The notes beneath the pieces were generated by a model. The model was not told where the DNA came from and did no database searches. It worked only from the letters and a program-made list of their open reading frames with translations. Of a stretch of 64,000 nucleotides of DNA, positions 25,774-63,709 are shown piece after piece; positions within the stretch are counted from its first letter, which is position 1; each line of letters opens with the position of its first letter. Made by a program: the position numbers and the translations under genes. The stretch is from sequence record MG383452, one strand, 5' to 3'. The DNA is from Escherichia phage FEC14.

Positions 25774-25983
25774 TTAGGTCGGCTTCTTTTTCAAATACTG
25801 GCGAGCCAAATTCATTTGTTCTTCAGTGATAGGACAACCGCCGAAGTCCACCATTCCGTTCCTCCAACCATGGATGAAACTCTTAGATTCTAAACCAGAT
25901 AGGACATATCCTTCACGGGCTTGCATATACCCGCGAAGAATCTCTTCATCGTCCATACTATTCAGTTCTTTCAAATCCATCAT
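25774..25983 (-). CDS. hypothetical protein (69 aa)
   Basis: ATGATG start overlapping primase stop (ATGA coupling); GAGGA RBS. Confidence 0.45.
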   Translation of the reverse strand: MMDLKELNSMDDEEILRGYMQAREGYVLSGLESKSFIHGWRNGMVDFGGCPITEEQMNLARQYLKKKPT

Positions 25984-27044
25984 ATCTTCCTCAAGTCAGA
26001 AAATCGTAAGGACGCCGACAGTCCCTGATATACGTTCTTGGCTATGATCTGAAGCAGATCCCGTATCGGGATATTTCCCTTGTCGGGGCGAACCATATCA
26101 TTGATATCCTTCCACGGTATTTCCGGTGGAAACAGAACGACTTTGACTCCGCTGTCTATCATCTTCTGTATACCGTCACAAACTTGTTTGTTCCTGTATT
26201 GGTTATCGGGGATATAGATGTCTCCCTTAGCACTTAATAAGTCGGCATCGGCAGTCGCAAGACAATTAGGTAGAAACAAGCTATCAATTGGACCTTCTAC
26301 TACCAACTTTGTTTTGTTCCAAATGATGCGCTCTTCCCCGTAGATTTTAGTGTCTTCGTTCTTAGGCTTGACAGTGGCATACCGTAATACCCCATCAGGA
26401 AGGTTATCGCCGAATGCGCGCCCCTGAACTATCTTCATGCGCCCGTCTTGGGTCCAGAATGGGATTACCAGCCGCTCATCTTCGGGTATCTTCTTTTGCT
26501 TCTCAACATCCGTTTCGAAACTCAGAAGATCTTGACGAAAATTCCTGCTGTAATACAACAAAGATAACGTGCTCTCCGGCATTCCCCTGCCTTCAACGTA
26601 ACGACGGGCGATATGATCACGGTCAAGAAGATCAAGGCGTATCATATTCCCAAGGTGCTCTTCATCTCGTTTGGCGACCTGAGAACCGATACGCGCTGTC
26701 TGGGTCAGGCGCTGTAGTGGTTTGAGTTTTTGTAACGGGCGGGAACTGGTATCCCCCATGATCCTGAATTTTTCAAGGTTGTATTCATTATACAGACGCT
26801 CGTCAAACTTCTTCAACCAGAATTCAAACGCCCAACCGCTCATTTCATTACAGTTGTGGCACTTGAAACGAAACACATCGTCATCACGATCATAAAAGAA
26901 GTGACCACGACGCTTGTTGGCACTCTTCTTAGAATCCCCGCATAATGGGCAACGAAATTTGGCGACAGCGCCAACACGTTCCCAGCTGAATTTATCAAGT
27001 CGGGGGGCGAGAAAATTGATGTATTGTTCGTCCAAGAATTTCAT
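25980..27044 (-). CDS. 61: DNA primase, T4 gp61-like
   Basis: 354 aa; zinc ribbon FRCPLCGDSKKS...FKCHNC; RLVIPF, VVEGPIDSLF, WKDINDM motifs collinear with T4 gp61. Confidence 0.8.
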   Translation of the reverse strand: MKFLDEQYINFLAPRLDKFSWERVGAVAKFRCPLCGDSKKSANKRRGHFFYDRDDDVFRFKCHNCNEMSGWAFEFWLKKFDERLYNEYNLEKFRIMGDTSSRPLQKLKPLQRLTQTARIGSQVAKRDEEHLGNMIRLDLLDRDHIARRYVEGRGMPESTLSLLYYSRNFRQDLLSFETDVEKQKKIPEDERLVIPFWTQDGRMKIVQGRAFGDNLPDGVLRYATVKPKNEDTKIYGEERIIWNKTKLVVEGPIDSLFLPNCLATADADLLSAKGDIYIPDNQYRNKQVCDGIQKMIDSGVKVVLFPPEIPWKDINDMVRPDKGNIPIRDLLQIIAKNVYQGLSASLRFSDLRKI

Positions 27045-27661
27045 TAGATATTTGGCCTCTGGAACACTTCTGTCACATTATAATCCACCCCGCGACTTTG
27101 AGCTATGCAAAGCTGTCGCCAAGCCCCATACAGAATATTTTGTTCCGCAACCTGATTGCGTTCAAAGTGGGCGAATTCTTCCAGCATCTGTTTGTACCCT
27201 AATAGATAATGAGGGATATCTGTAGGACTTCTTTTGCCCAAAGATTTAGACAAATATGATGCATAATGTTCCGGTGAAGACAAAGAGGAATATTGCATAT
27301 TTGGAACGTGAACGGGCTTCAAAGATTTTCTAGGGGTGAAGTACAACAAACCCCATTTGGGAGGGAGGTCTTCAATTTTAATAACATCTGCTGGGCAAAC
27401 ATAGAAACGATATGCTCCCATGCCTATGGAAGGATTCATGCGATGAGGTTTCTTTTTGTCTGTCAGGAAGTCGGCGCGGGAGACTTTAACTTCCATTAAT
27501 ATAGAACAACCCCCAGGTCTGAACCCGATGGCGTCAGGGGATTCACGATTATCGAATGAATTTGGTTCTACGAACACAGCACCACAATTCATTTGTTTGT
27601 GTAGAAATTTTGCAGCGATTTGACAACCTTCTGAGTGAGAAGGTATAAAGATTTTGCCCAT
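27044..27661 (-). CDS. putative PD-(D/E)XK-type nuclease-like protein
   Basis: 205 aa; PDAIGF ... ILMEVKV arrangement resembles the D...ExK core; weak. Confidence 0.35.
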   Translation of the reverse strand: MGKIFIPSHSEGCQIAAKFLHKQMNCGAVFVEPNSFDNRESPDAIGFRPGGCSILMEVKVSRADFLTDKKKPHRMNPSIGMGAYRFYVCPADVIKIEDLPPKWGLLYFTPRKSLKPVHVPNMQYSSLSSPEHYASYLSKSLGKRSPTDIPHYLLGYKQMLEEFAHFERNQVAEQNILYGAWRQLCIAQSRGVDYNVTEVFQRPNI

Positions 27662-27724: not shown

Positions 27725-28078
27725 TTAGGACAATTGCTTCAGTTTGTAAATCGTTTGATAGCACAAAGTTTTGATTTCGTCAAGCGTGTTTTGTAAATGG
27801 CTATCACACTGATTGTAGATCCCATTAACGTCGATGACCACGCTGTTGATATACGATATCGGTTCAGGATTGTATAATTTGATGTTCTCGAATCCTGGAA
27901 TGTATATACCACCCGCACCAATATACGCTTCCGTAAAGGTGTCTAGCAAGTCCTCCAGTTCCCCGTAGAACTCCCCGAGTGCCTTGTGCTTGGCGTAGGA
28001 CGTTGTAACGAAGTGCAGGGCATGAGAGTGGGCTATAGCAAGCAGTCCACGGTTGATGAAAATACTCGCGTTAACCAT
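27725..28078 (-). CDS. hypothetical protein (117 aa)
   Basis: ORF track. Confidence 0.4.
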   Translation of the reverse strand: MVNASIFINRGLLAIAHSHALHFVTTSYAKHKALGEFYGELEDLLDTFTEAYIGAGGIYIPGFENIKLYNPEPISYINSVVIDVNGIYNQCDSHLQNTLDEIKTLCYQTIYKLKQLS

Positions 28079-28167: not shown

Positions 28168-28773
28168 ATGAAAACTTTTCAAGACTTTTTGACCGAAGCC
28201 GCGCCGCCGATGTCTGTTCATATCAAGGCAGACAAGATCGGCAAATCCACCGAAGACAATATCGGTACTTTCTTGCGAGTTAGTGTTAGTGGCGACAAAG
28301 CCACCTTTGAAACCCCTGATGGTCGTAAGATAATCCTGACGGGTGCCAGAGACATCATTTCCGCATCTGGTCTGAAAGATGGACAGTTTGCCAGTGCCCA
28401 GATGATTGACAAGGTTGATACTGACACCGCTGTCAAGTACAACAAATCAGGCAAATATATTGACTTGTTGGATGTCAAATCAGGTATGGGCAATTCCTTT
28501 ATCTCCATTGACGGCAACAAGCAATGGAAAGAAATGACTGAAGGTGGTTGGTATGCGTATAAAGGCGGTCGCCCCGGCTTGGCTCGTTATAAGATCGCCA
28601 TGGTTATGGGACCTCATGCGGGTATGCCATCTCCTGGGGAAGATATTGAATACGAGTTACCGAATGGCGGCAAAGAACGCGGAACCGTCATGAAACTGAA
28701 TGGTGCATCCAAGCTGATGGACGTCAAAAACGAAAAAGGTAAGAAAGTACAAGTCAGTATGTATGTGAAATAA
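28168..28773 (+). CDS. putative capsid internal protein with T4-type capsid-targeting sequence
   Basis: N-terminus MKTFQDFLTE-A closely matches T4 IP leader MKTYQEFIAE-A; own terminator. Confidence 0.45.
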   Translation: MKTFQDFLTEAAPPMSVHIKADKIGKSTEDNIGTFLRVSVSGDKATFETPDGRKIILTGARDIISASGLKDGQFASAQMIDKVDTDTAVKYNKSGKYIDLLDVKSGMGNSFISIDGNKQWKEMTEGGWYAYKGGRPGLARYKIAMVMGPHAGMPSPGEDIEYELPNGGKERGTVMKLNGASKLMDVKNEKGKKVQVSMYVK

Positions 28774-28775
28774 CA

Positions 28776-28802
28776 AAACCCCGCGAAAGCGGGGTTTCTT
28801 TT
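28776..28802. terminator. bidirectional rho-independent terminator
   Basis: CCCCGC-GAAA-GCGGGG hairpin followed by TTTCTTTT. Confidence 0.55.
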
Positions 28803-45437: not shown

Positions 45438-45758
45438 TTATCTTTGATTTCCAACGAAATTAGTCGCTATTTCCCGACACATAGTCAGATCTTTGATCGT
45501 CTGTTTGCTATTGTCGGCAGCGGACTCCATCATTGGCAAATCCAAAGCATTCTCTATTTGATCCACGCTGTAGAGATCAAGGCGTTTCAACTCACCTTCA
45601 TAATCTGATAAAAGGATGGATGTATCTTTATCATCAGGGTGAAATTGTTGATAAGTAGACAACCAGGCCGCACACATATTCAATTTGCTAGCCGGAGTTG
45701 CCACAACTTGGAATGATGCCAACATAGAAAAGAATAACAAGAATATTATGTTTCTCAT
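45438..45758 (-). CDS. small secreted protein (signal peptide)
   Basis: N-terminus MRNIIFLLFFSMLASFQVVA typical cleavable signal. Confidence 0.45.
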   Translation of the reverse strand: MRNIIFLLFFSMLASFQVVATPASKLNMCAAWLSTYQQFHPDDKDTSILLSDYEGELKRLDLYSVDQIENALDLPMMESAADNSKQTIKDLTMCREIATNFVGNQR

Positions 45759-46444
45759 CTTTCGTTCTCCTTCATCATATTATCACAGTCAATTCTTGTT
45801 TGCTTGAGTTCACGGGCAAGCCTGGGATCATCAAGATTGACAGACAAATTAGTGGAAAGATCTTTCAAACCATTCTGAACACGGTCTTCATAATAATGAT
45901 CATTTTCCACCAGCCATGCTCTCAGGCCAAGGGCGCGAGTCCGCCATTCCTTTTTCAAACGTCGATCTGATTCTTGATCAGCACTGTATTCAAATACTCG
46001 GATACATTGGTTGCCATCATTGATGAGATCCAGCTGACGTCGGCCAACCTGCACACCTTTTTGTAATGCTGGAGAAGGAAGAGAACGGCACTGTCTTACG
46101 GTCATTCGTCCTTGTGTGCCCATACGACCAGTCATGATGAGATCGCCAGCCTCCATGCCTCCTCGATTAAATTCTTTGTCGTTCATATATCCTTTCAGGT
46201 TGAACGCGCCTTGCTTATATCGATTAAACTCAATACCAGCATTTACAACGGCATCTGTGACATTACCTGTGGCCCAGAGTTCAGCAAAGTTCTCTATGGA
46301 ACCAGTTTTGTCTATAGCGACGGCTTGGGAGAACCCAGCACAGTAGGAAAGATCAGACCACAGTTTTTCACCTGTGGAGTTCAGCTTGGCGGTGGCAGGA
46401 AGTGCCAGACCAGCCAGCACAACCCCGATGATTAAACGTTTCAT
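45755..46444 (-). CDS. secreted protein (229 aa) with signal peptide
   Basis: ATG 46444 with AAGGAG RBS; MKRLIIGVVLAGLALPATA signal; tracked ORF extends upstream. Confidence 0.45.
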   Translation of the reverse strand: MKRLIIGVVLAGLALPATAKLNSTGEKLWSDLSYCAGFSQAVAIDKTGSIENFAELWATGNVTDAVVNAGIEFNRYKQGAFNLKGYMNDKEFNRGGMEAGDLIMTGRMGTQGRMTVRQCRSLPSPALQKGVQVGRRQLDLINDGNQCIRVFEYSADQESDRRLKKEWRTRALGLRAWLVENDHYYEDRVQNGLKDLSTNLSVNLDDPRLARELKQTRIDCDNMMKENER

Positions 46445-46523
46445 GGTGATTCTCCTTATTTCATTGGATAAAATGATAGGGCTGTCACCATGTTGAGTAA
46501 AGGGTTTCAATAAACTATCGTAT

Positions 46524-46973
46524 TCAGAAACGGGTATCGCTGACCGTTCTGTATCGCACACCCTGAAACTGTTTAGCGAGTTTAACAAATTCCATCGCTG
46601 GCAAATCAACTTTGTAGACCTTCATGCGCTGTTTGCCGTCCATGTTCAACGCAGCGACAAATCGGTGAGACCCGTCAACAACGTAATTGTCAGAAGACAC
46701 CCAAACTCGACCCATGGGCTTCTTATTTCTGATCTGCTTCATAATCTTCCAGACCTTCATTTTATTGATTTCGTTCTGGGTAAGACGAAGCATTTTGATG
46801 GGCACTTGCGCAGCATCTATGGACACGCCGTTGTCTTCAAGATATTTGTGAAAATCTTCTTGTTTGTCGGCATCGATTTGCGGCATAGAAGAACGAGAAA
46901 GCCCGAGGTTCCCAACAGGAATCCTCAGGCCATTTATGATATTCATCCAGTCAATAAAGGATGTAAGGAACAT
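46524..46973 (-). CDS. ParB/Srx-fold nuclease-like domain protein
   Basis: 149 aa; YVVDGSHRFVAA resembles the DGxxR core of ParB-like/DUF262 nucleases. Confidence 0.4.
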   Translation of the reverse strand: MFLTSFIDWMNIINGLRIPVGNLGLSRSSMPQIDADKQEDFHKYLEDNGVSIDAAQVPIKMLRLTQNEINKMKVWKIMKQIRNKKPMGRVWVSSDNYVVDGSHRFVAALNMDGKQRMKVYKVDLPAMEFVKLAKQFQGVRYRTVSDTRF

Positions 46974-47341: not shown

Positions 47342-47848
47342 TTATAGGGTAACAAGTGATACGGTAAAAACCATCGTCCCATCTGTTGCCATTTTTCTTG
47401 AAACTGGGAAGACGCGAGGCTGACAGAATATCCATTCTTTCTCCATGGACGCCAAGTCCAGCATATCCATTTCTGATTCATCGCCTTTGTTCACAAATTT
47501 TTCTAGAGAACCAAAGACATTAAGCCCCTCTGGGAGTCCGTTTCGATGTTTATAACAAATGCGGGCAACAGCTTTGGTTCCATACGATTTAGAAAATTGT
47601 TTGGCCACATGCTTCAGTTCGCTGAAACTAAGACAAGAATCCCATGTCTGAAACATGTCTCCTCGTTCAAACATCATCTCCAAACGCGCAACGTCCTCTT
47701 TAGGCAACCCGCGATAAAGTGTGGTCATCTGCGGTTCGCGTAATTCTTGCACCAGACCACGGATGGCAGGGGAAACAGTGCCAGGGCGCATGATGTGGGA
47801 CTTATCATGGACGAGGTAAAATAAATCTTGAATTTGTTGATCGGTCAT
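47342..47848 (-). CDS. hypothetical protein (168 aa)
   Basis: ORF track; starts MTDQ like the downstream 92-aa gene. Confidence 0.45.
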   Translation of the reverse strand: MTDQQIQDLFYLVHDKSHIMRPGTVSPAIRGLVQELREPQMTTLYRGLPKEDVARLEMMFERGDMFQTWDSCLSFSELKHVAKQFSKSYGTKAVARICYKHRNGLPEGLNVFGSLEKFVNKGDESEMDMLDLASMEKEWIFCQPRVFPVSRKMATDGTMVFTVSLVTL

Positions 47849-60978: not shown

Positions 60979-62481
60979 TTAGAGCGCCACTTTTTTCATT
61001 TTAACAGGGTGGCGCTCCATAAGATAAAATTTATATCTCTCATGAGAATGCCTGAGAGCATGGTTGTAGGAACCGTTGTAACGCAGGTTGTCTACCAGGT
61101 CCCAGATTCGCGCAACATCCTTAGAGGAATGCTGACGCATCAAACGCCCCAATGTCTGTATAACACGGATATAAGATTTGCTGGGATGGGCCAATATCAG
61201 ATGATGGAGTTTTTTGATAGATACGCCCTGTTGCATAGTACCATATGATGCTAACAGTGTTATATCTTCCCCTTCTTCCATAGCAGCCTGAATCTGTTTA
61301 CGAACTTCTGTCTTGACTTCCCCGTTGATGACGAATACGTTTTTCTTGACTGCCGATAGCATTTCATAAACCAACATCATGTGTGCATCGATACGTTCGA
61401 ACATGACTGCGACGTTCCCTTTCAAAGATAGAGCCATTCGGGCTATCAATTCATTGCGGCGTTCGTTAGCAATGAGGAATTCTATTTCCTTTTGATACTC
61501 AGCACCGTGCATTTCAATACAGTCTGCCATAGGATGTATGACTTCAATCATATTAACATTGATGTCTGCCGCATATCCTAGATCGATTAAATCGCGCGCT
61601 GTAATAATTTTATGATATGCGCCAAAGTGAGCAACGACTTGTAACCCTGCGACCTTTGTATTCGCCAGGGTTCCGGTTACTCCCAAACGTTGATCAGCGT
61701 TAATACAGTTGTTCAAGATGTAAGACAATTTATCTGATTTTGATGTATGTACTTCGTCAACGACGATATCTCCAAATTGATGGAACCACTCTTTGGGTTG
61801 GTTCTGGATACCTTGCCAAGTTGAAATAACTATGGGTTTGAAAATCTCTTTCGTTGCCCCTTCGTATATTGTCTGGACGTTCATCAATGGCTTCCATTCT
61901 GTCCCGTGGCTATATTCTTCGAAGTTGTCATACAACTGAGTCACCAAATGAATGGATGGTACAACAATTAACGTCCTCAGATTACTTTCGAGGGCATCTC
62001 TGCGTTGCCTGTAGTAACGCGCCATGATGTACAAAATAAAGGATTTGCCAGCACTCGTGGCAGCTTCGAGGACACATCTGCTTTGGCGTATTGCTGTGGC
62101 AACAGAATCAAATTGATAATCGCGGACAATCGCTTTTTGATATTGTTTGTTTTCGTCTCGGTACACCGCATTCAATGTATCGATGAACGCATGAATTTCT
62201 TCATCCGGAATGTCTTGAATATATTTTAAGGCCGGATCTAATTTGATGGTGTAACCGTTCATCTTACAGAATTTGAACACCTCAAATAACAGGCCGATGT
62301 CGATAAGCCCAGAACTCTTTGTGAACAACCGCACTACGCCGTCCCATTTACTGAACGGATTCGGTTGGAAATTAGGATCTTCAAATTTGAAGTAATCGTT
62401 GAGTTCTTCACGGATATAATCCTCGGCAAGGATCCGCATTCTAACTTCGTTCACTTTGACTATTTGGATCTCAGACATCAC
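60979..62481 (-). CDS. uvsW: UvsW SF2 DNA/RNA-DNA helicase
   Basis: 500 aa; PTSAGKS-like motif I (EAATSAGKS), DEVH box, WQGIQNQPKEWFHQFG matches T4 UvsW WQTVVKQPKEWFSQFG. Confidence 0.8.
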   Translation of the reverse strand: MMSEIQIVKVNEVRMRILAEDYIREELNDYFKFEDPNFQPNPFSKWDGVVRLFTKSSGLIDIGLLFEVFKFCKMNGYTIKLDPALKYIQDIPDEEIHAFIDTLNAVYRDENKQYQKAIVRDYQFDSVATAIRQSRCVLEAATSAGKSFILYIMARYYRQRRDALESNLRTLIVVPSIHLVTQLYDNFEEYSHGTEWKPLMNVQTIYEGATKEIFKPIVISTWQGIQNQPKEWFHQFGDIVVDEVHTSKSDKLSYILNNCINADQRLGVTGTLANTKVAGLQVVAHFGAYHKIITARDLIDLGYAADINVNMIEVIHPMADCIEMHGAEYQKEIEFLIANERRNELIARMALSLKGNVAVMFERIDAHMMLVYEMLSAVKKNVFVINGEVKTEVRKQIQAAMEEGEDITLLASYGTMQQGVSIKKLHHLILAHPSKSYIRVIQTLGRLMRQHSSKDVARIWDLVDNLRYNGSYNHALRHSHERYKFYLMERHPVKMKKVAL

Positions 62482-62507: not shown

Positions 62508-63254
62508 TTAGCGATCCGCCCAGATTCCTTTCTGTTCTTTACCCATTTTGTGATACAGACGGACACGATCAAACATTTTAGAAATAACGTCTTTGCGATC
62601 GAATTCGATTATGGTGGGAACAAGGGCATTTTCGTTGGATATAATATTGATTAAACGCTCTATCTTGACATTAAACATTTGTTGAAACATGACTGAGTAT
62701 AGACACAATTGAATACTATAATCTTCTATCATGCTTCGAGTTTTTAGGGTGTTGGATGTTTTGAAATCGATTATGCTTGGAATTCCTTCGTAAACCCCGA
62801 TGAGGTCAACACGACCAGCAAGACCCAGGACTTCGCTATATAATGGAATCTCTTGTGCATATATCTTGCTCATTTTGTTAAGGTAGGGGAAAACCTGTTT
62901 GAACATAAACACGTATTCCCCTGCAGCTTCCAGAACTTCCTTCATTGGTCTGTTTTTGAGATACAACTCACAAGCCAAATGAAGTTTTTCCCCACGGTCT
63001 GCGCAACGATGTGTTTCTATATCAGCAGCTTCATGTCCCAACTTGTCCCGCCAGGCTTCTAACCATGTGTGGTCACCAGTACGCCCTAACATGGTCGTCA
63101 CTGAAGTTAGTTTGACTCCAGTGGGGGAAACATAGTGACGACCATTTTCGGTAGTTACGCAAGTCAGTTCCTTAAACGGCAAGGAATATTGCTGAAATGT
63201 GTGATGACGATTTTCAAAGTCATTAAGTTTGCGCAAAGCCTGTAGAGAAACCAT
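62508..63254 (-). CDS. putative PD-(D/E)XK nuclease-like protein
   Basis: ATG 63254 overlapping upstream stop (TAATG); GRVDLIGV ... IIDFKTS D...D-x-K arrangement; tracked ORF begins at upstream TTG. Confidence 0.35.
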   Translation of the reverse strand: MVSLQALRKLNDFENRHHTFQQYSLPFKELTCVTTENGRHYVSPTGVKLTSVTTMLGRTGDHTWLEAWRDKLGHEAADIETHRCADRGEKLHLACELYLKNRPMKEVLEAAGEYVFMFKQVFPYLNKMSKIYAQEIPLYSEVLGLAGRVDLIGVYEGIPSIIDFKTSNTLKTRSMIEDYSIQLCLYSVMFQQMFNVKIERLINIISNENALVPTIIEFDRKDVISKMFDRVRLYHKMGKEQKGIWADR

Positions 63255-63709
63255 TACATCCCATCCAAATATTTTCGCCAATCAATAGCATTCTTCACTT
63301 CATATCCGAGTTTGTTCAAACGATCTAAGCAACTTTCGATGAACTTGACTTTGGCTTTCTGCTCTTGAAGCATGCTAGACAATTCGATATAATCATCATC
63401 TGCTTTTACCCATACGTCTATATCAGATTTCAGGGGGCGAACTTTTAATGGACGTTCAACATAAACGTTGGGTGGCAATTCCCCTGCATAAAATCGGCGT
63501 AAATAGAGATCTATTTGGCGGAATTTGCCAGTTAGATACTCCAGATATCTTCCTTCACGAATATAATGGCGTTGCACAGTCATCCACGAACGACCAATTT
63601 TCAATGACATTTGGTCTAAGTTCATGTCTTCAGGATTTACCGAAATAAGAGGCTCCAATTCTGCCATTATATCTTCGGTTTTCATCGTTTCAAGTTTTGT
63701 TTCGCTCAT
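63254..63709 (-). CDS. hypothetical protein (151 aa)
   Basis: ORF track; preceded by tandem TATAAT-containing repeat. Confidence 0.45.
   Translation of the reverse strand: MSETKLETMKTEDIMAELEPLISVNPEDMNLDQMSLKIGRSWMTVQRHYIREGRYLEYLTGKFRQIDLYLRRFYAGELPPNVYVERPLKVRPLKSDIDVWVKADDDYIELSSMLQEQKAKVKFIESCLDRLNKLGYEVKNAIDWRKYLDGM

Follow-up and report, generated by a model that had tools for sequence, protein, structure and literature searches.

The subject of this report is a stretch of 64,000 nucleotides from Escherichia phage FEC14 (sequence record MG383452), referred to in its full length as the window, and within it a gene at 27044–27661 whose product, P1, is a candidate PD-(D/E)XK nuclease encoded directly beside the DNA primase. 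A first-pass annotation had singled out P1 and two further open reading frames (ORFs), P2 and P3, as scattered PD-(D/E)XK and ParB-like nucleases. Each of the three is a genuine ORF on the minus strand and contains the motifs named for it. P1 is the only one of the three with some novelty: P2 is already annotated in related phages, and P3 is no demonstrated nuclease. The features on which the argument turns are given below.

27044–27661, minus strand: P1, a predicted MmcB-related PD-(D/E)XK nuclease of 205 amino acids (ORF, PHROG 631, alignments, structure model, Foldseek, hhalign)
27338–27580, minus strand: predicted nuclease core of P1, residues 28–108, with strands b1–b3, the SRADF helix, the insert KPHRxxPxxGMG and the LPxxWGL strand; aligns to 3dnx and MmcB
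27092–27289, minus strand: C-terminal three-helix region of P1, residues ~125–190, with a conserved N169-x-x-A-E173 motif; the full-length form occurs in Ackermannviridae-type phages
25980–27044, minus strand: gp61-type DNA primase, immediately downstream of P1 (PHROG 47 'DNA primase', E 1.2e-78)
62508–63254, minus strand: P2, a RecB/Cas4/MGME1-like PD-(D/E)XK exonuclease of 248 amino acids (Pfam PDDEXK_1, PHROG 298, MGME1 match)
46524–46973, minus strand: P3, a ParB/Srx-fold protein of 149 amino acids (alignment A2, structure model, Foldseek, UniRef name)

Fold, conserved residues and relatives of P1

Bare PD-(D/E)XK patterns carry no information in the window. Among its 93 ORFs of at least 100 amino acids, 54 contain D-x(8–30)-[DE]-x-K, compared with 53.7 ± 3.6 in shuffled ORFs, which is chance level, and 11 contain PD...[DE]xK where 7.8 are expected. 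The DGxHR pattern of P3 is rare (1 of the 93 ORFs, 0.08 expected). The caution in the first-pass annotation that motif evidence alone is weak is borne out by these counts. The observation stands above chance because the motif residues are invariant in divergent homologs, because profile searches find matches and because confident structure models show the expected folds.

The P1 motifs are SPDAIGF at residues 41–47 and MEVK at residues 56–59, and the candidate catalytic residues are E32, D43, E57 and K59. Its counterparts include CBA120_107 and LIMEstone1 ORF077, and the label is 'hypothetical protein' in all related records inspected. Searched alone against Pfam, NCBIfam, PADLOC and PDB sequences, P1 matches nothing (no Pfam match at E ≤ 1). 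Against PHROG, it falls in phrog_631, of unknown function (E 2.5e-82), and also matches phrog_5429 'DNA repair protein' (E 1.2e-10).

Of the 41 clusters found by a homolog search, about 27 are full-length, Ackermannviridae-type proteins, and about 14 are distant relatives whose similarity to P1 is confined to the N-terminal ~110 residues. From these homologs, 25 were aligned (A1); the invariant positions are H9, E32, E40, P42, D43, E57, K59, R62, D64, D68, K71, R74, G80, G82, R85, W103-G104-L105 and E173. A second alignment (A3), of 34 cluster representatives that are 32–42% identical to P1, leaves E40, D43, E57, K59, D64, F65, D68, K71, R74, G80, G82, R85, P100, W103 and G104 invariant. Towards the C-terminus, E173 is invariant in the family alignments and N169 nearly so. 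The family is large: an exhaustive profile search of 1.84 billion cluster representatives found at least 7,110 clusters with E ≤ 1e-3, and 1,400 clusters reached E ≤ 1e-30.

The AlphaFold model of P1 is confident (predicted local distance difference test score, pLDDT, 90.3; predicted template modelling score 0.86). Helix 9–22, strands 28–31, 44–48 and 52–58, helix 62–68 and strand 84–89 form an alpha-beta-beta-beta-alpha-beta arrangement, followed by C-terminal helices at residues 130–142, 151–163 and 170–189. D43 is located at the start of strand 2 and E57-x-K59 on strand 3, which is the placement of the active site in the PD-(D/E)XK superfamily. Foldseek comparison with the PDB placed 3dnx (SPO1766) first (E 4e-4, probability 1.0), followed by NucS/EndoMS, the nuclease domains of LlaBIII and BspD6I, SfsA, Cas4 SSO0001 and Exo5, and further by McrC, Card1, MspJI, Hjc, VRR-NUC, BamHI and FokI. 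Among predicted viral structures, the best matches are uncharacterised phage proteins (Aeromonas phiA8-29, E 7.8e-13), followed by several 'MmcB-like DNA repair protein' entries. By its predicted fold and its conserved acidic and lysine residues, P1 qualifies as a member of the PD-(D/E)XK superfamily, so that the PD-(D/E)XK assignment first made from the letters alone is upheld by PHROG, invariant residues, model, Foldseek and profile comparisons alike.

The structure 3dnx represents DUF1052 (PF06319, COG5321), a catalogued PD-(D/E)XK family (PMC3424549). P1 family profiles match the 3dnx sequence with E 1.4e-3 and 3.3e-5 over D43...L105. In a profile–profile comparison by hhalign, the A3 alignment was paired with a profile of 24 genuine PF06319 proteins (A4; selected by precomputed Pfam domain, some of them named 'MmcB family DNA repair protein') with a probability of 97.0% and E 1.2e-10 over 76 columns. 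The paired positions are D43, E57-x-K59, the S-R-x-D-F box, D68, K71, R85 and the LP..WGL strand. A Pfam scan of the P1 family with PF06319 gave only weak matches, in 3 of 25 and 4 of 34 members (E 2e-4 to 1e-3). As so few members give even weak matches, the P1 family is set apart from PF06319: judged by sequence profiles and the predicted fold, it is a distinct, unnamed sister family of the MmcB-like nucleases and not a curated PF06319 member.

In the window, the P1 stop codon overlaps the primase start codon (TAATG), and no promoter-like or terminator-like site was found at this junction in a scan of the region around P1 that was otherwise uninformative. The order P1-then-primase is also found in phages S117, barely and S118, in Serratia phage phiMAM1 (53% identity, 4-nt overlap) and in the 157-kb Vibrio phage D528 (39% identity, 5-nt gap). 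By sequence and gene order, P1 is a syntenic core gene of the Ackermannviridae-type lineage. This lineage includes the phage itself. The 25.5–29.5 kb part of the window is 91% identical to Salmonella phage S117 and matched 269 phage records, nearly all from Ackermannviridae (Kuttervirus, Taipeivirus, Limestonevirus and others); the 44.5–49.5 kb part is 99.5% identical to Escherichia phage PhaxI, and the 60.9–64 kb part 98.8% identical to many Kuttervirus genomes. From this region-by-region identity, the phage is classed on nucleotide sequence as Vi1-like, Kuttervirus-like and within Ackermannviridae, not Straboviridae. Its description as T4-like in the first-pass annotation has to be given up, as its kinship with T4 is limited to core genes of replication and morphogenesis.

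Searches by tblastn located P1 in 646 phage records. The full-length protein (residues 1–203) occurs only in Ackermannviridae and 157-kb Vibrio phages, and the core alone (residues ~8–118) in about 100 Stx-converting phages, many Vibrio siphophages and others. In Stx2 phage 1717, the homolog is a 171-residue 'conserved hypothetical protein' of the exo–int region, 46% identical to P1 over the core and retaining all catalytic residues. The gene for this phage 1717 homolog is found in 931 of 5,426 complete E. coli genomes (~17%), at 1,050 chromosomal and 250 plasmid places, and PGAP labels it 'hypothetical protein' in all records listed. More distant homologs lie in a locus resembling an integrative and conjugative element (ICE) or plasmid, with TopoIII, KorA, DndB and Cas6/Csf5, in phage early-gene arrays, in an Ead/Ea22–KorA region and on one chromosomal-looking contig.

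Possible roles of P1

The MmcB protein of Caulobacter is described as an SOS-induced PD-(D/E)XK endonuclease that guards against mitomycin C and cisplatin, and it is thought to work with translesion polymerases on interstrand crosslinks (PMC9578287). By analogy, it is proposed with moderate confidence that P1 is a small, metal-dependent PD-(D/E)XK DNA endonuclease of the MmcB sister family, made together with the primase and processing damaged or branched replication intermediates. P1 would be produced alongside the primase during DNA replication and would cut intermediates such as stalled forks and lesion-containing DNA, in line with the part that MmcB is proposed to play in crosslink repair. 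It would be neither a bulk degrader of host DNA nor a homing enzyme. The 39 virion proteins of LIMEstone1 do not include its P1 homolog, ORF077, and the neighbouring ORF078–085 are confirmed virion proteins (PMC3296691 and sequence record). From this absence from the virion proteome, P1 would appear to act inside the cell. No Ackermannviridae transcriptome that would time the expression of P1, and no functional work on phage MmcB-like proteins, was found in a literature search.

Kuttervirus annotations include a RuvC-like resolvase, RNase H, gp46/47 and a DexA-like exonuclease, with DenV in some strains, so that junction resolution, primer removal and end resection are already covered by other genes. 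A role for P1 as a Holliday-junction resolvase or in primer removal was set aside in view of the RuvC-like resolvase and RNase H.

Several points weigh against a replication-coupled repair nuclease. P1 lies below every curated threshold in Pfam, NCBIfam and PADLOC, and the homology with MmcB spans just 76 columns, leaving the family-specific insert (R74, G80, G82) and the C-terminal helices outside the match. The role of MmcB itself is known here through a review's summary of genetic work (PMC9578287). Overlap of the P1 and primase genes indicates co-expression at most, not a physical or functional partnership. Furthermore, the wider P1 family is without a constant gene partner across five metagenomic contexts and the Stx exo–int region, which implies that the link to primase is specific to the Ackermannviridae-type lineage and not family-wide. 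Both the cleavage activity of P1 and its role are predictions from homology and gene coupling.

The wider family also provides the grounds for a different role, in which P1 would be a weapon between genetic elements, that is, an anti-defence or superinfection-exclusion nuclease directed against rival phage or plasmid DNA or against host defence nucleic acids, with its position beside primase incidental. The wider family resides almost wholly in the accessory or early parts of phage, prophage and ICE- or plasmid-like genomes; it is very abundant and patchy, and its neighbours include DndB, the type IV CRISPR protein Cas6, KorA and Ead/Ea22. Within Ackermannviridae, however, P1 is not sporadic but syntenic, and its apparent co-expression with a gene of replication holds in different genera and in homologs with as little as 39% identity. 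P1 also has no PADLOC match, and its closest characterised relative, MmcB, is a repair enzyme. A weapon of this kind is regarded as unlikely.

A bolder extension of the repair reading is thought quite unlikely. It would make P1 a dedicated partner of gp61-type primase that nicks or trims stalled forks, D-loops or lesions for re-priming and restart by the Ackermannviridae replisome, would make the family of at least 7,110 clusters a general replication-restart and repair nuclease of mobile elements, and would make P3 an injected ParB/Srx protein, gated by nucleoside triphosphate (NTP), that handles the incoming genome.

Host DNA degradation, one of the roles suggested in the first-pass annotation, is disfavoured. 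In this scheme, P1 would degrade host DNA and spare the phage DNA with its hypermodified thymidine, supplying nucleotides in the manner of T4 EndoII and EndoIV. The active-site residues of P1 are intact, Kuttervirus has genes for a hypermodified base (PMC12115623), and there is no annotated denA or denB homolog that would degrade host DNA. Against this, a passage of PMC12115623, citing Matilla 2014, gives 1e-5 to 1e-6 as the level at which plasmids and chromosomal markers are transduced by ViI-type phages, and the same source describes them as being without homologs of denA, denB, ndd and alc. High-frequency generalized transduction implies that host DNA survives infection and makes its bulk degradation by P1 unlikely. 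In addition, homologs of the P1 core are common in temperate Stx phages, in the 931 E. coli genomes noted above and in ICE-like loci, settings in which hypermodification of self DNA is not known. On balance, the sparing of hypermodified phage DNA by a host-degrading P1 is judged improbable.

It is very improbable that P1 is a non-catalytic, DNA-binding accessory of the primase or helicase with a retained nuclease-like fold. Tight coupling to the primase gene and a lineage-specific C-terminal helical domain that could make protein contacts speak for such an accessory. Inactivated PD-(D/E)XK domains usually lose their catalytic residues, and in the P1 family the canonical catalytic residues are invariant in the alignments of 25 and 34 sequences, from a family of thousands of clusters.

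The suggestion that P1, P2 and P3 are selfish homing-type nucleases inserted among small ORFs is barely credible: many free-standing homing endonucleases do occur in Ackermannviridae (PMC3296691), but a comparison with related genomes for homing-type insertions found the three genes at the same positions in essentially all relatives examined, from Ackermannviridae to the 157-kb Vibrio relatives, and none matches HNH, GIY-YIG or LAGLIDADG families in Pfam or PHROG. The true homing endonuclease at the P1 locus is a separate gene that is not in the window. In LIMEstone1, the P1 homolog (ORF077) and the primase (ORF075) are separated by the HNH homing endonuclease F-LimV, ORF076 (PMC3296691 and sequence record). 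Similarly, Kuttervirus KE31 carries a homing endonuclease, 61% identical to F-LimV, at the same junction, and at position 27044 of the window P1 and primase overlap without such an insert. P1 is accordingly the resident gene, and the P1–primase junction looks like a recurrent homing site.

Upstream of P1, the window contains the following features.

27725–28078, minus strand: gene just upstream of P1 (PHROG 858, Pfam DUF5856), labelled 'starvation-inducible transcriptional regulator' in relatives
28168–28773, plus strand: accessory ORF of 201 amino acids amid minus-strand genes, sporadic in distribution
28775–28798: strong bidirectional terminator after the 28168–28773 ORF, with a 10-bp stem of which 6 pairs are GC

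In LIMEstone1, the first of these corresponds to ORF078, which has a late promoter and whose product is confirmed as part of the virion, for which reason the 'regulator' label looks doubtful. Just 13 phage records contain the accessory ORF (MK-13, Gloob, S117, 3HA11, some Klebsiella phages and CRW-SP2); it is missing from barely and S118 and has no match in Pfam, PHROG or PADLOC.

P2 and P3

P2 is flanked by two recombination genes.

63254–63709, minus strand: UvsY-like recombination mediator directly upstream of P2, its stop codon overlapping the P2 start (TAATG)
60979–62481, minus strand: UvsW-like helicase directly downstream of P2, named 'DNA helicase ... PDB 2OCA' or 'UvsW-like helicase' in relatives

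The motifs of P2 are D150 in GRVDLIG, D163-F-K165 in IIDFK, and QLCLY. Its start is taken as the ATG at 63254, as in the curated S118 genome, and the ORF lister extends the frame to a TTG at 63281. P2 passes the Pfam threshold for PDDEXK_1 (PF12705; 29.8 bits against a cutoff of 22, E 7.1e-7) and belongs to PHROG 298 'exonuclease' (E 2.2e-85). Its best PDB sequence match is MGME1, in which GLLDCVA and VIDWK align with GRVDLIG and IIDFK. Cas4 models match P2 with E-values of 1e-8 to 4e-9, the PADLOC Cas4 models (E 4e-9) over the C-terminal half only, and P2 lies below the equivalog cutoff of Cas4 model TIGR00372 (34.5 bits against 65). The iron–sulfur site of Cas4 is formed by an N-terminal cysteine and a C-terminal cysteine cluster; by inspection of the 248-residue sequence, the cysteines of P2 are scattered (C32, C84, C94, C184) and do not form such an arrangement.

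The assignment of P2 as a PD-(D/E)XK nuclease is correct by the PF12705 threshold and PHROG 298, but it is not new: S118, rabagast and ISTP3 are among the phages whose records already call the protein 'exonuclease' or 'PD-(D/E)XK nuclease (PF12705)'. A homolog is present in 996 phage records, many T4-like cyanophages among them. P2 most likely performs end resection for UvsX/UvsY-mediated, recombination-dependent replication. A role in recombination, as originally proposed, or in repair is plausible, strongly for P2 from its position between UvsW and UvsY, and for P1 from its homology with MmcB. Two entries, OR844942.1 'Enterococcus phage Efm 3-10' and MN871475.1 'Pseudomonas phage Pa-sanjiao', are 98.5–99.6% identical to Salmonella Kuttervirus in the compared regions and are probably mislabelled or contaminated.

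In P3, the VVDGSHR motif occupies residues 98–104. Across 17 homologs down to 39% identity (alignment A2), D100-G-S-H-R104 and L64-T-Q-N-E68-x-N-K are invariant. P3 falls in PHROG 2859, a family to which no function is assigned (E 3.2e-45), and has a weak second match to PHROG 1033 'ParB-like partition protein' (E 1.6e-3); its UniRef name is 'ParB/Sulfiredoxin domain-containing protein'. No Pfam or NCBIfam match was obtained, ParBc (PF02195) included, and Pfam searches with all members of the P3 family gave noise. A comparison of the P3 family profile with PDB sequences returned von Willebrand factor matches at E ~0.3, which were judged spurious.

The structure model of P3 (pLDDT 81.6) consists of an N-terminal helical segment and a ParB/Srx core only. 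Foldseek matched it to the ParB N-domain of pNOB8 (E 5.5e-4), Noc, sulfiredoxin, ParB-CDP, SbnI, PadC and free serine kinase. The matches cover ~90 residues at a root-mean-square deviation of 2.6–3.5 Å, and the ~40 top ones are of the ParB-N/Noc/Srx/SbnI/PadC/serine kinase kind, most with a probability of at least 0.9. P3 is accordingly modelled as a member of the ParB/Srx superfamily fold. Its DGSHR motif is presumably the GxxR/GGCHR phosphate-binding loop of that family, an equivalence that draws in part on Iyer et al. 2017 (PMC5512222).

The designation 'ParB-like nuclease' is thereby half retained: the ParB/Srx fold is supported by Foldseek, and 'nuclease' is unsupported, as the structural neighbours are CTP- or ATP-binding proteins and kinases and no nuclease family was matched in Pfam, PHROG, NCBIfam or PADLOC. 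The same division applies to the nuclease-core signatures read in the three proteins. P1 and P2 are assigned to the PD-(D/E)XK fold with intact catalytic residues, and profile searches led to non-nuclease families for P3 only. Some ParB/Srx proteins (Osa, GmrS, Bce_0392) have been reported as deoxyribonucleases (DNases) (PMC5512222), an activity that P3 might conceivably share.

The LIMEstone1 homolog of P3, with 83% protein identity, is flagged as a 'confirmed structural protein' from electrospray ionisation tandem mass spectrometry of virions (PMC3296691). The LIMEstone1 paper tabulates a 17.31-kDa structural protein of unknown function with 35.6% coverage and 5 peptides (PMC3296691). This 17.3-kDa virion protein is ORF102 in Table 2 of that paper and ORF101 in record HE600015, where ORF102 has only 243 nt; the mismatch implies that the numbering is offset by one in that part of the genome. 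Iyer et al. 2017 described DdrB-like ParB domains in phages, solo or fused, that adjoin virion genes and are packaged in the head, and predicted that they are NTP-regulated DNases or NTP sensors of early infection (PMC5512222). By analogy, P3 is most likely packaged, would bind a nucleotide triphosphate via its DGSHR loop and would act on DNA at or just after injection. It counts against this proposal that nucleotide binding by P3 is read only from its fold neighbours and conserved motifs.

Membership of the DdrB-like family proper (PF18763) was considered and rejected. An hhalign comparison with P1 DdrB gave a probability of 0.14%, a weak test because the target was a single sequence, and 1 of 17 family members matched PF18763, with E 0.073.

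Two further features lie next to P3.

47342–47848, minus strand: Alt-like 'RNA polymerase ADP-ribosylase' of 168 amino acids (PHROG 832, E 1e-15, at the C-terminal end of a 1,480-position profile; no Pfam match)
45755–46609, minus strand: spanin-like ORF call of 284 amino acids with a TTG start, overlapping the 3' end of P3; its PHROG match begins at residue 56

The ADP-ribosylase gene is two genes upstream of P3. In having a small solo ADP-ribosyltransferase domain encoded close to a packaged ParB/Srx protein, the locus is reminiscent of the sets of domains in polyvalent proteins that are injected. As the PHROG match of the spanin-like ORF begins at residue 56 and relatives have an i-spanin-like gene of 690 nt, its true start is probably near 46444.

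Significance and relation to known systems

P1 is 'hypothetical' in hundreds of Ackermannviridae genomes, phages of use in biocontrol and therapy, and it becomes assignable to an MmcB-related PD-(D/E)XK family with named catalytic residues. Its homologs, which are carried by ~100 Stx-converting phages and by 931 of the 5,426 complete E. coli genomes, gain an assignment in the same way. The conserved and apparent co-expression with primase yields a concrete hypothesis that DNA processing is coupled to replication in these phages, whose replication has received little attention. Were the bolder extension true, which is doubtful, a so far unnamed family, present in ~17% of complete E. coli genomes in Stx-type prophages and plasmids, would be a general replication-restart or repair nuclease of mobile elements. 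For P3, 'ParB-like nuclease' is a misleading label; a packaged, probably NTP-binding ParB/Srx domain points to the biology of early infection and not to DNA degradation. Current understanding is not overturned by the results on P1, P2 or P3.

Among known systems, the predicted fold of P3 matches the ParB/Srx N-domains of pNOB8 ParB (5k5d), Noc (7nfu), ParB-CDP (7bnk), Srx (3cyi), SbnI and serine kinase with a probability of ~1.0. Unlike the ParB proteins of partition systems, P3 has 149 amino acids, lacks a helix-turn-helix or dimerisation domain, and is packaged in the virion as judged from its LIMEstone1 homolog. The genes annotated around P3 are spanin-like, hypothetical or ADP-ribosylase genes, with no ParA among them, and no search was aimed at ParA or parS. 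P3 would fit the same lifestyle as the DdrB-like ParB proteins (PF18763).

P2 resembles the MGME1/Cas4/RecB exonucleases (PF12705), in that its motifs D ... D-x-K ... Q-x-x-x-Y align to MGME1 and to Cas4 models. It differs from Cas4 in falling below the equivalog cutoff, in the absence of a CRISPR context and in its location between UvsW and UvsY.

P1 is closest to the MmcB-like proteins of PF06319, with which it appears to share the same PD-(D/E)XK core; 3dnx is the top match by both sequence profile and fold, and the signature D ... E-x-K-x-S-R-x-D-F ... D-x-K ... R ... LP-x-x-x-GL is common to PF06319 and the P1 family. The P1 family differs in three respects: an extra conserved insert, K71-P-x-R74 ... 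G80-M-G82, a helix at the N-terminus that contains H9, and helices at the C-terminus that contain N169 and E173. The P1 family is found in phages, prophages and ICE-like elements, whereas PF06319 is mostly found in alpha-proteobacterial chromosomes. In Ackermannviridae, P1 appears to be co-expressed with the primase, whereas a role in the SOS response and crosslink repair is known only for MmcB of Caulobacter.

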